Source: Candidatus Latescibacterota bacterium
GTDB taxonomy: Bacteria; Latescibacterota; UBA2968
Assembly (NCBI GenBank): GCA_965116885.1
Contig: OZ220741.1
Location: 1,312,001 to 1,376,000, forward strand
DNA: 64,000 nt
Direction: 5' to 3'
Positions 1,402 to 9,379 of the stretch are shown here, in pieces. The stretch's first letter is position 1. Each line of letters starts with the position of its first letter. Under the pieces are notes generated by a model, which was given only the letters and a program-made list of their open reading frames with translations, was not told the DNA's origin and did no database searches. The position numbers and the translations under genes are program-made.

Positions 1402-3153
1402 CTATTGGATACGTGCCTTAATTTCCTTCCAAATTACGTTTGCCCGTGCCTTAAGGTACTCCTCATATCGGTCCTTAACCGTCCCGTTATCCTCTATAAG
1501 TTCGTCATAAGGGACAAAATGGGACTCAATACGGTTCTTCAACTGCTCATCCGTTAGCTGATCATTCTTTTTTATATCGTCCAAGTACAATGCAGGTTCT
1601 TTTCCGCCCAGTATGATGTTGGTGGATTTTCCAATCAGGACAGTATTGAGACCATGATTGATGAGATCAGAACCAACTATTCCACCGTCCACCAGCACCT
1701 TTCGTGGAAATACATGATGTTTGTCAAGTTGCTTTTCTTGCTCTAAATCTCTGATTTGGCCAAGTGTCAATCGTACTTCCGTAATCCAATCCAAGGAACG
1801 ACCATTATCGATGGTAAGGGCTATAATAGCCTTACCAGAAGAAGATGATCTTCCAATAGGCTTATTCTGATTACATAAGTCTTTCTCTCCAATCACCTGC
1901 GTGTCCTTAAATATGCGCGCATTTCTTTTTATTTTTTTTCCCTCTTTTATATCTTTAAGATTTTCTCGAAGATCTTTGAAGTCTTCGTATAAACTATCGT
2001 TCGCCTGTTTTTCATAGCGGTCTGAAAAGAAAGACCACCAAAGATACTTAGTTAGAAGTTTTCTAGCTGCTGCCTTATTAATTGTATGAATACTATCAAA
2101 TTCGTCGTATAAAGCGGCGATTACATAGACGGGTGGCATACGTGGAAGTATGCCTTTAGTTGGAACGCCGTTGTCTTCCAAAAACTGTAGTGTAGTGTCA
2201 AGATTAGACTCGACCATATCCGCGTTCTCTGTTCCGGTAATAAAAAGATAATCCAGTGCCTTGCGAAAGTTGTTGTCCTTGGGGGGCAGACCACCCTTCA
2301 AACACGCAATCTTCAATAGGCAATCGCCTATCTCTGGAATCCAGCGTTCTTTATCATTATAAAAGTAGTGTTTAATCCTATCACGCTCTTCGTGGAATCG
2401 CTGAATGCGTTCTCTCAGTTTAATGTCTGTTCTAATATCCAGTGCTTGTGCAACAGCTAAGTCAAATGCCGTAACTATGACTGACGAACTGTTTGTTTGA
2501 ACAAAAATAGAGGCAGCCTCATCAACACCAATCCCTTTGAACTTGGCGAACCAGATTTTGTACTCTTCCAGTGGTGTTTTTAATTCATTTTCTATAGAAC
2601 GTCGCAGATCTCCAGCACTTGAGGAATCTTTGGGTATGGCCTTTTCGCACCACTCTTCTACACCAGACTTTGAGTCGTGGGCTGGCGGGTCATAGAGAAT
2701 ACTCACGGGGATTACGTTGTCCGAGAACTCGTCTTGCGGATTAATATCTTCCTCAGAACTCTCTGGTCGATGTATCACCTCTTTTATTTTCATATTCTCG
2801 TTTTGCAAATCTTTAACTTTTATGTAAAATCGTCTTTTACCTTCCCCCATAAGTCCTTGCCAGAGTGATGTTAGCCGCTGTTGACCGTCCAAGATAAGAT
2901 TTTTGGCGTTCTCTATGTAGACGTCATTGCCTTGTATTTCTCGCTTACCGAATTCAGGTCCCGATTCGACCAGCAATATGGTCCCTGTTGTTTGTCCTCG
3001 AAGGACAGCTTTCAGAAAGCGTGCTGTTCGCATGTCGTCCCAGACGCGACTCCGCTGGAAATCGGTGAGGGCGAGTTCGCCCTCCGCCATTTCGTCCATC
3101 CAGTCTTTGACCGTCTTGTCTGTATAGTCTGGATTCATCATAGTGTTCTCCAA
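1402..3153 (-). CDS. DUF262 (DGQQR, ParB-like NTPase) + C-terminal HNH nuclease, GmrSD/SspE-like
   Basis: DFQRSRVW, LILDGQQRLTSL and IFVQTN motifs; C-terminal DKHHVFP...N...TN His-Me finger pattern. Confidence 0.8.
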   Translation of the reverse strand: MENTMMNPDYTDKTVKDWMDEMAEGELALTDFQRSRVWDDMRTARFLKAVLRGQTTGTILLVESGPEFGKREIQGNDVYIENAKNLILDGQQRLTSLWQGLMGEGKRRFYIKVKDLQNENMKIKEVIHRPESSEEDINPQDEFSDNVIPVSILYDPPAHDSKSGVEEWCEKAIPKDSSSAGDLRRSIENELKTPLEEYKIWFAKFKGIGVDEAASIFVQTNSSSVIVTAFDLAVAQALDIRTDIKLRERIQRFHEERDRIKHYFYNDKERWIPEIGDCLLKIACLKGGLPPKDNNFRKALDYLFITGTENADMVESNLDTTLQFLEDNGVPTKGILPRMPPVYVIAALYDEFDSIHTINKAAARKLLTKYLWWSFFSDRYEKQANDSLYEDFKDLRENLKDIKEGKKIKRNARIFKDTQVIGEKDLCNQNKPIGRSSSSGKAIIALTIDNGRSLDWITEVRLTLGQIRDLEQEKQLDKHHVFPRKVLVDGGIVGSDLINHGLNTVLIGKSTNIILGGKEPALYLDDIKKNDQLTDEQLKNRIESHFVPYDELIEDNGTVKDRYEEYLKARANVIWKEIKARIQ

Positions 3154-4013
3154 ATACGATTAAGCAGATCGTCTACCAGTTCGCCAATCTCTTCGAACTC
3201 CAAGACGCCAATCTCTCTGGACGCAGCGATGTTGCTGAATCGGCGCAGTACTTTTGTCAATCTGCTGGCAGTTCGTAAAGGCGTTTTTGGTTTCGCCTTA
3301 AAGTGCTTCGCCAAGCTGTTGACGAAAGCGTCCTGTACATCTACTGATCCAAACACTGATCCTCTGGACACAATCATAGTGACCAGATTTTCCCAGTATT
3401 GCTGATTGGTTCGAACAACATCCAATAATGCTGCCCTATCCTCGACACCATCCCGTTTAAGGATCCGGGCAACTATTCGTTCCCGCCACCATGCACGTCC
3501 GAATGAAGGATTCACAAAGACGCTTTTGTTCCCACGTGCCCCAGGCAATCCGCTCATTCGTCTGATTACAGTTCTTACACAGTCATCAATGCCCTTAGCA
3601 TCCTGAGTAACAAGAGCTCGGTCAATTCTCTCGTCTCCACCCTCAGTCCTCCCTCCATTCGCTGCAAGCCAGTACGGTTCAATCCCATCTGATCTAATGT
3701 GTTGCAACGTGACTCCAGCCCAAAAGGAAATCCGGCAAGCTATCCTTGGAGGTACGTGAGACCATATTTCATACGCCGCTTGTTCCTGGTCTCTGGTCAG
3801 ATCCTTAAAAGATTGTTCAGTAAGGGGACCGGGAAATAGCTCCACGATTTCACCAGAAGTTTTGGAAACTTCTTTATCCATGAAGGACAAAAAATCTTCG
3901 CTGTCTTTCACTGCAACGAGGAAGTCACGCTGGTAGTCACTACCTTTTTCGGACAGCAGATTTTTATGCAGACGGGTGAATTCACCTTCATTGAGTTCCG
4001 CATAATTAGTCAT
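3138..4013 (-). CDS. Hypothetical protein in the putative DNA-modification operon (reminiscent of DUF6339)
   Basis: 291-aa ORF coupled to both neighbours; ACRISFWAGVT and FGRAWW segments recall the DUF6339 RLW...RLWW pattern (from memory, unverified). Confidence 0.6.
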   Translation of the reverse strand: MTNYAELNEGEFTRLHKNLLSEKGSDYQRDFLVAVKDSEDFLSFMDKEVSKTSGEIVELFPGPLTEQSFKDLTRDQEQAAYEIWSHVPPRIACRISFWAGVTLQHIRSDGIEPYWLAANGGRTEGGDERIDRALVTQDAKGIDDCVRTVIRRMSGLPGARGNKSVFVNPSFGRAWWRERIVARILKRDGVEDRAALLDVVRTNQQYWENLVTMIVSRGSVFGSVDVQDAFVNSLAKHFKAKPKTPLRTASRLTKVLRRFSNIAASREIGVLEFEEIGELVDDLLNRIWRTL

Positions 4014-4015
4014 CT

Positions 4016-8023: not shown

Positions 8024-8029
8024 GTTGTA

Positions 8030-9379
8030 TTACTCAGTGCAATCGCAAGGCAGAACAGTATTGGCAAAACGAGAAAGATCATCCCCTGTCTTGCTGCTGT
8101 CAGCTAAAATATCGTAGGAAAACTCACTCGATGCACCGAAGAACCCGATGAAACTTGTCGCGTCAGGGTTCTTCCGCTCTCGATTCTCAAGTTCCAGGTC
8201 TCGCCCGTACTTGTTTTCCATACTCGCCCACCAATCAATTGTGCATGGCGTATCAATAGTCGGCCCGAAGTCTCTAATCTCGCGCTCTTTTTGATTTTCC
8301 ATTGCTTCGTGTATTTGCGTCAGATTGCCAATGCCTTTGAGAAAACAATAGACACAATTAGAAAGTGCGCCATTTGGAGAGAGTTCCAAACCCCAACCTT
8401 GTTGTTGCCAAAAATCATTAACATCTTCTCGCCCTATGTGCATCTTTGTAAATGGCATATAGACGTGTTCACCTTCGTATCCTTTGTTCGCGTGAGGATT
8501 GGATGACCTGGATTCTACTCTGGCGACTCGCAGTTGTTCGTCTCCACGCAAACCAATGAAAGCAACATATTCAATACCCCCATCGCCGAACCACGCTTTC
8601 TGCCCGAATACTTTGTCCTTAAGCAATGCGTTTTCAAAGGGACTCGCTGGTGCAGAGAAGTCACGATAATACTGTTTCGGACGGCAGGTTGGTCGGCTCA
8701 ATACGAATCTTTTCTTTTGAAGAAGCACATCTTTAGGCACACCGCCCCCATTACGTATATGGCTTTTGTGCATTTGGTCAGTGTCAACCTGCGATTCTGG
8801 AAGCCCATGTCCCAAACGCGGGATGCTTTTCTTGCTTGCAAACCAGTCTCGGAGAAACTGACGGGTAATTTCCAGCTTGAGGGATAGTGTGCAAACGCGG
8901 GTAAACTGATTCGGCAAATATGCTTTGTTTGAAAGCATTTCCTCAAAAGCCTCACCGCGCCACTGGAAGCCATCCGGATTAGTCTCTGAGAAGGGATGCT
9001 CATTGACTAGGCGGTAGGAGGAGATGCGGCGCCATTCTCCCTGCCGTGCGTCTTCGTAGGTTTGGAATTGGATGAAGAAGAAGGGGATACCGGCTGCTTC
9101 TACGCGCTTTTTGCACTCAGCGGCGAACTTGTAAGTCTCAGGGTGTTCGCACGAAGTGTTGTTGAATACCACTACATCACCGCGCTCTTGCTTAAGAAAT
9201 CCATTTTCTAATAAGGTGAAAAGTAGCATGCCACTGGAACGTCCTCCAGAAAACTTAACGACATGCGGGAGTTCTTGGTGGTATTTGGAACGATAACGAA
9301 AGGAGTAGGTTTTATCAGGATCATAGTGTTTGGATTTTTGTAATTTTCTCGATATTGAGAGTTTAGGAATAGCCTGCAT
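8030..9379 (-). CDS. PAPS-reductase-family PP-loop protein (DndC/SspD-like), probably Fe-S binding
   Basis: FSGGRSSG PP-loop, NTSCEHPETY, RVCTLSLK, IGLRGDE, NCVYCFLK, C-terminal PCDC; AAGGGGG RBS. Confidence 0.8.
   Translation of the reverse strand: MQAIPKLSISRKLQKSKHYDPDKTYSFRYRSKYHQELPHVVKFSGGRSSGMLLFTLLENGFLKQERGDVVVFNNTSCEHPETYKFAAECKKRVEAAGIPFFFIQFQTYEDARQGEWRRISSYRLVNEHPFSETNPDGFQWRGEAFEEMLSNKAYLPNQFTRVCTLSLKLEITRQFLRDWFASKKSIPRLGHGLPESQVDTDQMHKSHIRNGGGVPKDVLLQKKRFVLSRPTCRPKQYYRDFSAPASPFENALLKDKVFGQKAWFGDGGIEYVAFIGLRGDEQLRVARVESRSSNPHANKGYEGEHVYMPFTKMHIGREDVNDFWQQQGWGLELSPNGALSNCVYCFLKGIGNLTQIHEAMENQKEREIRDFGPTIDTPCTIDWWASMENKYGRDLELENRERKNPDATSFIGFFGASSEFSYDILADSSKTGDDLSRFANTVLPCDCTE

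Follow-up and report, generated by a model that had tools for sequence, protein, structure and literature searches.

We analyzed a 64,000-nucleotide (nt) stretch of the genome of Candidatus Latescibacterota bacterium (assembly GCA_965116885.1, contig OZ220741.1, positions 1,312,001 to 1,376,000), hereafter the window, in which a cassette at 1402-9379 holds six intact open reading frames (ORFs), all on the minus strand and without internal stops. Gene A (9379-8030, 449 aa) encodes a PP-loop enzyme with the fold of 3'-phosphoadenosine-5'-phosphosulfate (PAPS) reductase, and gene B (8023-6872, 383 aa) encodes a cysteine desulfurase of the IscS/DndA/SspA type. These are followed by a GHKL ATPase homologous to PDC-M33A (C, 6869-4851, 672 aa), a PDC-M33B homolog with no Pfam match (D, 4876-4016, 286 aa), and an all-helical protein resembling DUF6339 and PDC-M33C (E, 4013-3138, 291 aa). 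The last gene, F (3153-1402), spans 583 aa from a TTG start or 579 aa from an ATG at 3141 and encodes a GmrSD/BrxU-like protein that joins DUF262 to a putative His-metal nuclease. Judging from sequence comparison, the cassette probably marks the cell's DNA with sulfur by an undescribed route.

The tight, co-oriented packing reported in an earlier sequence-only reading of the window was confirmed by the ORF coordinates: the gaps are 6, 2, and 2 nt, C and D overlap by 26 nt, and E and F overlap by ATGA. That reading also described an AT-richer island. At 46.4% GC the cassette does lie below the genome mean of 51.1%, and GC at third codon positions is 0.42-0.48 in its genes and 0.58 and 0.60 in two flanking genes, but the bias is modest because 4.8% of 8-kb windows across the genome are equally low. 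Positions 1289-9999 were spanned by a single contig with zero differences in each of runs X1 and X2, one of which may itself be the source of the window assembly. Intact motifs, absent stops, and this difference-free contig in two runs ruled out an artifact or pseudogene. Terminal repeats, a promoter consensus, and a terminator consensus were not found at the cassette, nor were phase-variation tracts (a long C/G run or short tandem repeat) in the window copy, where the longest runs are G6 and T8.

Co-occurrence of the genes in other genomes, a check named beforehand, held for A through E. These five genes were complete in 4/4 cassette genomes of the phylum. Among 16 metagenome loci, 12 were complete (including two duplicate pairs), and the other four end at a contig edge while carrying every gene that fits. 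Full-length A and the PDC-M33A ATPase were found in the identical 4 of 168 phylum genomes. Gene order was A-B-C-D-E, or C-D-E-A-B in loci L026-L029. Distance matrices of A-E correlated at 0.88-0.96 across 14 loci, with 0 of 2000 permutations as high. Together, repeated co-occurrence and correlated distances define a unit of five genes and rule out chance juxtaposition; the correlation itself reflects shared descent as one unit and is not proof of one function. Instead of the six-gene system first proposed, we therefore describe five genes with a swappable effector, as F was present in only 5 of 13 non-redundant loci with flanks, each flank ending at 10 kb or at a contig edge. The closest full copy of the cassette lies in a same-genus genome (L001 in G091). 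Homologs of A numbered 1360 at E ≤ 0.001, and among the best 120 (68-100% identity) three carried the source names Gemmatimonadetes, Chloroflexi, and Gammaproteobacteria, which points to inter-phylum transfer. The genome-collection scan used one query protein and returned one locus, with the cross-phylum range poorly sampled.

Protein A matched Pfam PAPS_reduct at E = 0.0017 (under the cut-off) and, in PADLOC, SspD at 4e-9 and BrxP at 1e-5, the latter limited to 68 residues at the PP-loop. Across 22 sequences, the motifs SGGRSS, RxC163T, GxRxDE, NC342xxC345, and terminal C445-x-C447 were invariant or nearly so, with SGGRSS (44-49), C163, C342/C345, and C445/C447 invariant in 22/22. SspD has counterparts of all of these motifs, including RxCT, CxxC, and the terminal cysteines, and DndC has counterparts of the first cysteines only. 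A profile built from A matched phage NinC-like proteins at up to 3e-36 and SspD at 4e-5 or weaker, and did not detect DndC at E ≤ 0.01. In a quick tree of 57 rows, scored with the Shimodaira-Hasegawa-like approximate likelihood ratio test (SH-aLRT) and read with caution for the long branches of DndC and CysH, the 25 rows of the A clade had a support of 99 and joined the NinC-like proteins at 95, separate from the SspD (97) and DndC (94) clades. By these comparisons, A forms a separate clade whose sister group is the phage NinC-like proteins. It scored 34.5 bits against SspD, compared with >300 for true SspD, and the two lie in separate clades (SH-aLRT 99 and 97). Likewise, A falls outside the DndC clade, and the genome has no TIGR03183 match at E ≤ 1e-20. 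Phage matches to A were distant NinC-like proteins, plasmid matches were absent, and neither Pfam nor NCBIfam gave a TtcA or ThiI match at E ≤ 1. Searching the sequences of solved structures returned nothing usable for A, D, or E. Because the genome encodes CysH separately, among genes of cysteine synthesis, A is ruled out as the housekeeping enzyme. We predict that A is the DNA-adenylating, sulfur-inserting subunit.

Several relatives of A are fused to DNA methylases. Three of 16 scanned A-clade members (P0404, P0399, and P0398) carry a C-terminal C5 cytosine methylase, probably from one event, and the fused methylase has a long variable region. Among viral NinC-like relatives, 3 of 8 scanned are fused to Dam or D12 adenine methylases (L054:9992-11563, L052:10037-11746, and L063:9992-11701). 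This suggests that phage "PAPS reductases" of the NinC-like branch modify DNA, and fusion to three methylase classes is the strongest sign that the A branch acts on DNA. The fusions leave backbone and base undistinguished as targets.

Protein B matched Pfam Aminotran_5 at 9e-86 and the PADLOC models of SspA and DndA at ~482 bits each, as expected of a Dnd/Ssp desulfurase, and scored below the NCBIfam DndA cut-off (387 versus 480). Both the pyridoxal phosphate lysine (K204) and the catalytic cysteine (C328) are present. Another IscS-like gene lies elsewhere in the genome, which rules out B as the housekeeping IscS and argues that B is dedicated to the cassette. The assignment of A and B as sulfur enzymes in the sequence-only reading was thus upheld by catalytic motifs kept in both.

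The remaining three genes of the unit, C-D-E, correspond to a catalogued trio. C matched Pfam HATPase_c_3 at 7e-5 (under the cut-off) and PDC-M33A in PADLOC at 1e-36, and its GHKL motifs (E41, N45, D48, D125-N-G-x-G, and G152-x-x-G-x-G) are invariant in 15/15 sequences. Sulfur-linked ATPases form their own clade on a long branch from those of plasmids and are distant from PDC-M33A (124 bits, versus 538 for a Lactococcus copy). C584 occurs in 15/15 sulfur-linked ATPases and 0/9 plasmid copies, in a region of distant alignment, and may simply be a clade marker. There were no viral matches to C, and solved structures gave weak GHKL matches only. D matched PDC-M33B at 3e-9 and no Pfam family. Its model, with a mean predicted local distance difference test score (pLDDT) of 88.9, combines an N-terminal beta-sandwich resembling immunoglobulin (Ig) or fibronectin type III (FN3) domains with an alpha/beta C-terminal part; fold searches returned generic FN3 folds (best Z 7.3, root-mean-square deviation 2.9, 96 aligned), and the ESM Atlas returned unnamed clusters only. 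From its model, D is a probable adaptor. E matched Pfam DUF6339 at 1e-4 (under the cut-off) and nothing in PADLOC, and one of its four relatives (the L024 copy) matched PDC-M33C at 3e-8. Aligning the E profile to eight third genes of plasmid trios, six of them annotated DUF6339, gave an hhalign E of 1.5e-4 over 248 columns at 51% probability; against one sequence, E was 0.31. The all-helical model of E (pLDDT 93.7) has many conserved arginines, and E is a candidate DNA-recognition subunit. Its fold search returned a PDCD5-like bundle (Z 6.1 over 73 residues) that we did not trust, and the ESM Atlas gave weak GAP1 leads. A missing structural match, in itself, shows nothing.

Ten plasmid loci in Bacillota, Actinomycetota, and Deinococcota carry the trio ATPase, and 0/10 have A or B homologs. 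An annotated DNA methyltransferase is present in seven: Dcm in five, where it is paired with Vsr or a type II endonuclease, and an N6 or MmeI-type methylase in two. The other three have an AlwI-type nuclease, an AIPR protein, and nothing annotated, respectively. In five methylase-linked trios, a conserved helical protein of 62-77 aa is encoded directly upstream of the ATPase (L148:7734-7964, L149:7747-7977, L151:7734-7922, L152:7706-7939, and L153:7669-7896), and this small gene was not found in sulfur-linked loci. The sequence-only reading had treated the ATPase and two proteins of unknown family as the system's own motor and specificity module. All three are already catalogued together as PDC-M33, E as a distant relative of its third member, and because the trio also serves methylase loci, its motor or specificity role for the writer is something we infer. 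PDC systems are described as untested candidates embedded in BREX, DISARM, or restriction-modification (RM) loci, and M33 is not named in the main text (Payne et al., 10.1101/2024.01.29.577857). Our literature search, in which subscription journals were mostly not covered, found nothing on DUF6339 or PDC-M33.

F matched GmrSD_N at 1e-15 (over the cut-off), with an N-terminal DUF262 and invariant DGQQR, and matched HEC-05 in PADLOC at 2e-9. Its sole match among solved structures was 7P9K (587 aa, 5e-12), which we take to be BrxU. The motif DxHHxFP...N...N (DKHHVFP, N499, and N508) is invariant in 5/5 cassette copies, and Pfam gave no HNH or DUF1524 match. F has both motifs of the DGQQR-HNH nuclease initially described, without a Pfam HNH domain. 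Its HxxP...N...N motif matches the nuclease motif described in the accessible part of PMC12707154, and HEC-05 is equated with BrxU in that of Payne et al. (10.1101/2024.01.29.577857). SspE gave no match to F at E ≤ 1, and one F relative matched at E = 0.006 over 13 residues. F thus resembles SspE in DUF262 and no further, and because it has free-standing relatives in addition to its patchy presence beside the cassette, the proposed modification-sensing role is no more than a possibility. At E ≤ 1e-15, F-like genes were found in 17 of 168 genomes, not counting the three cassette copies. Four of five cassette F proteins fall in one clade (FastTree 0.999), and the fifth groups with free-standing copies; the spread of those four across hosts of 39-59% GC suggests a long association. 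According to the excerpts available, activation of SspE requires the phosphorothioate (PT) mark (PMC13251355) and BrxU acts independently of its BREX neighbor (PMC12707154). F could work with or without a sulfur mark.

F-type nucleases take three different positions in the five loci that have them. Among the 13 loci, we also observed PbeA with or without PbeC in five, TIGR04096 over its cut-off in two, NF045808 over its cut-off in one, DGQHR proteins in two, and an NsnA-like DUF262 protein with HEPN in one. Overall, a nuclease, DUF262, or DGQHR gene adjoins the cassette in 13/13, and PT-associated families (PbeA/PbeC, TIGR04096, NF045808, or DGQHR) are present in 7/13. The retrieved flanks of those seven contained no DndC, separate SspD, or Dcm. 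In four loci, a protein of 660-700 aa with domains like the RNA polymerase alpha C-terminal domain and sigma-70 region 4 (a weak MzaA match) is encoded between the cassette and PbeA (L015:6935-9037, L016:12946-14928, L022:16202-18247, and L028:12479-14548).

Absence of the canonical Dnd and Ssp partners, as initially noted, was borne out by wider searches. Canonical DndC, DndD, and SspD were not found in the genome (for DndD, no match over the cut-off), and the six proteins gave no match to DndD, SspB, or SspC in PADLOC or NCBIfam, nor to SspB or SspC in Pfam at E ≤ 1. A PT-dependent restriction endonuclease (NF045808, 349 bits) is encoded at L147:7097-8008 (G000:C1:93096-94007), 1.2 Mb from the cassette. 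Three of the 4 cassette genomes encode this enzyme, as do 13 of the 164 without the cassette, and it is ambiguous evidence because it directly adjoins SspD matches in at least five phylum genomes. Divergent DndA-DndC clusters lie at L145:4216-11809 (G091) and L146:5855-12356 (G145), with a third copy in G138. Each comprises a desulfurase, a DndC of 390-420 aa (over the TIGR03183 cut-off), a 600-aa DUF262-HNH-like gene, and then DGQHR-like/ParB-like genes; no DndD-sized ATPase gene was seen in 16 kb. They may correspond to the DUF262-linked cluster mentioned in the available text of PMC12914056, or to a single-gene writer resembling TdpC. Strong SspD or canonical DndC was present in 0/4 cassette genomes versus 30/48 other genomes of the two genera (Fisher p = 0.027). 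We did not use this apparent mutual exclusion as evidence because the grouping was post hoc, kin are non-independent, and counting the divergent DndC makes it 2/4.

The cassette is mobile and occupies a variable insertion site (1236..11131) between sulfatase and nupC-like genes, which also holds a small ORF, an NYN gene, and an orphan antitoxin. In 8 of 19 same-genus genomes having both flanking genes, their spacing is 62-123 nt; in the remainder, it is 0.6-6.7 kb or the genes are on separate contigs. Among ten such sites retrieved, one was empty and the others held different cargo. In the closest relative (G085), the NYN gene is retained and a transposase-like ORF occupies the position of the cassette; adjoining this ORF, L158:1288-1434 is a remnant of window 1328-1477, at the 3' end of F, with 81% identity. 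The remnant suggests that this relative lost the cassette or a related nuclease gene. The cassette contig of runs X1 and X2 has about half the depth of its flanks, and in a second contig 1235 is followed directly by 11132. Island-bearing and island-free strains likely coexist, but this is not certain because the short side of the joint is only 27 letters, read at 90% likeness. Run X3, labelled as a sponge metagenome, contains A-E at 97% identity, with 292 nt skipped in E and with the match to F ending at 3048. In three runs, many contigs break off on either side of window 1286-1318, and this 30-nt stretch is probably a repeated element in these genomes. Divergent from the cassette, window 9614-11024 encodes a 109-aa ORF with no family match, an NYN nuclease with a zinc ribbon (HEC-09-like at 5e-14), and a Phd antitoxin without its PIN toxin partner, which is present in three relatives.

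We propose the following mechanism for the cassette. B would draw sulfur from cysteine to form a persulfide on C328. A would bind ATP in its PP-loop, adenylate a DNA phosphate, and swap oxygen for sulfur to yield a phosphorothioate, with its five invariant cysteines probably holding an Fe-S cluster or a persulfide used in sulfur insertion. C-D-E, comprising a GHKL clamp, an Ig-like adaptor, and an arginine-rich helical subunit, would grip or scan DNA and fill the place of DndD/DndE or SspC/SspB. That the trio serves methylase RM loci elsewhere implies that the marking enzyme may be swapped, as in BREX type 4. Finally, the adjacent nuclease (F here, and elsewhere PbeA/PbeC, a sulfur-binding HNH protein, or a DGQHR protein) would attack invading DNA or kill the infected cell. 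We give this reading, in which an undescribed PT-like writer is scaffolded by the trio and paired with exchangeable effectors, somewhat better than an even chance. The distinct PT-like system originally put forward is favored by linkage, co-evolution, catalytic motifs, and no match in the literature, but sequence accommodates a PT and other sulfur products alike.

Several observations weigh against a PT-like writer built on the trio. A is not an ortholog of DndC or SspD, its closest kin are functionally uncharacterized phage proteins, and its fusion to a C5 methylase would fit base modification equally well. Fold searches with D and E gave no informative structural relative and no recognized DNA-binding fold. 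Because the trio occurs without sulfur genes, it may travel along with A and B without being the motor of the writer. The unlinked PT-dependent restriction enzyme could conflict with PT marking, and two of four cassette genomes also have a divergent DndA-DndC cluster. Moreover, the PT writers covered in the accessible parts of PMC12914056 and PMC12707154 use a P-loop ATPase or TdpC alone, never a GHKL ATPase.

In one rival reading, A and B would instead thiolate a DNA base (e.g., 2-thiocytosine or 4-thiothymine) by TtcA/ThiI-like chemistry, with the trio supporting restriction based on base modification. The C5 methylase fused to A in P0404, P0399, and P0398, Dcm in 5/10 plasmid trio loci, and the separation of the A clade from both PT writers are consistent with this, as is the pairing of a PP-loop enzyme with a desulfurase, the chemistry common to ThiI, MnmA, and TtcA in the available text of PMC12914056. 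However, A groups with PAPS-reductase folds of the SspD/DndC type, keeps their motifs, and lacks a TtcA or ThiI match at E ≤ 1, and PT-associated neighbors are present in 7/13 loci, so we regard base thiolation as unlikely. The corresponding picture, a sulfur-substituted nucleobase as a bacterial epigenetic mark that the searched papers do not describe, made by a phage-derived PP-loop enzyme on a GHKL clamp able to accept either a methylase or a sulfur writer, is improbable as well; if true, the widespread phage NinC-like "PAPS reductases" would also be assigned a function. Alternatively, A and B could write PT alone, as TdpC does, with C-D-E an independent or restriction-side module linked by mutual benefit. 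The trio occurs on its own next to several methylase systems, A and B are missing from 10/10 of its plasmid loci, TdpC alone is enough for PT in the accessible part of PMC12914056, and Dcm-fused members of the A clade show that A is possible in other settings. Yet 0/20 A-clade loci with contig room lacked the trio, the gene trees are congruent, and the sulfur-linked ATPases group apart in a clade marked by an invariant cysteine of their own, which makes an independent trio rather unlikely.

The substrate might also not be DNA: within a defense island, A and B could place sulfur on a nucleotide, a cofactor, a tRNA, or a protein, or the sole task of B could be to build the Fe-S cluster of A. PAPS-reductase folds also act in sulfate assimilation and flavin adenine dinucleotide (FAD) synthesis, and structure searches recognized no DNA-binding fold in D or E. 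Fusions to three DNA methylase classes, an adjoining nuclease, DUF262, or DGQHR gene in 13/13 loci, and the separate CysH in a cysteine-synthesis context all argue otherwise, and we consider this very unlikely. A further question concerns F alone, which could be a type IV modification-dependent nuclease like BrxU or GmrSD that cuts phage DNA with modified cytosine independently of the sulfur mark. Its best matches are HEC-05 and 7P9K, F-like genes occur in 17/168 genomes besides the three cassette copies, F is absent from 8/13 loci, and its match ends at 3048 in the 97% identical strain; the independence of BrxU from its BREX neighbor (PMC12707154, as far as its text was available) points the same way. 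Against this stands the single clade (FastTree 0.999) of 4/5 cassette F proteins, whose hosts range from 39 to 59% GC. The chances for and against an independent F seem about equal.

If confirmed, a PT-like writer scaffolded by the trio would be a fifth PT route and the first with a GHKL ATPase, and the PDC-M33 trio would be a scaffold that accepts different DNA-marking enzymes. The kinship of A with NinC-like phage proteins makes the choice between DNA modification and a role in sulfur metabolism testable for the latter. The window copy comprises six unbroken genes in 8 kb and can be synthesized as is.

Compared with known systems, the cassette shares several parts with SspABCD-SspE: a dedicated desulfurase, a PP-loop enzyme with SspD motifs, and a nuclease with DUF262/DGQQR and an HNH-type motif. 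It differs in having a GHKL trio and no SspB or SspC match, in that A is a separate 449-aa clade, and in its BrxU-like F. TdpABC differs in that TdpA and TdpB are reportedly a HerA-like ATPase and nuclease pair, and no such pair exists in the cassette; the likeness lies in a single PP-loop writer working through an adenylated intermediate, and TdpC alone suffices for PT synthesis (PMC12914056, available text). With Dnd and Pbe (CxC-ABC) it shares a desulfurase, a PAPS-reductase fold, and TIGR04096, DGQHR, and sulfur-binding HNH neighbors. Pbe/CxC modules are reported together with PT genes or, alternatively, with cytosine methylases (PMC10853773, in part), and in 5/13 loci the cassette occupies that place beside PbeA/PbeC. 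DndC, DndD, and DndE are not in the cassette, DndE having been sought only among the six proteins rather than genome-wide. PDC-M33 is alike in that C, D, and, weakly, E are homologs of its A, B, and C in identical order, and unlike in being an untested three-gene model without sulfur genes, from which the sulfur-linked clade is distant and set apart by the private cysteine C584. ParaMORC resembles the cassette by its described behavior, in which a GHKL ATPase accompanies DNA methylases, Vsr, and endonucleases, whereas sulfur enzymes are not mentioned in the available part of PMC2292703. BREX type 4 offers the precedent of a PAPS-reductase writer and desulfurase replacing a methylase on a kept ATPase scaffold (PMC12914056 and PMC12839542, in the portions available), but the cassette has no BrxC, PglZ, BrxL, or DUF4007 matches and its scaffold is the GHKL trio. 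Four PT writers are established (dnd, ssp, tdp, and BREX type 4) in the accessible text of PMC12914056, and the survey behind the fourth required a DndC/SspD homolog and a P-loop ATPase, a filter that would miss this cassette. In the literature searched, the joining of A-B to C-D-E matched no single described system, in line with what the sequence-only reading had anticipated. The parts are of known kinds, whereas their combination and the A clade have no description in that literature, and the cassette would appear to work like Ssp or BREX type 4 while being a member of neither.

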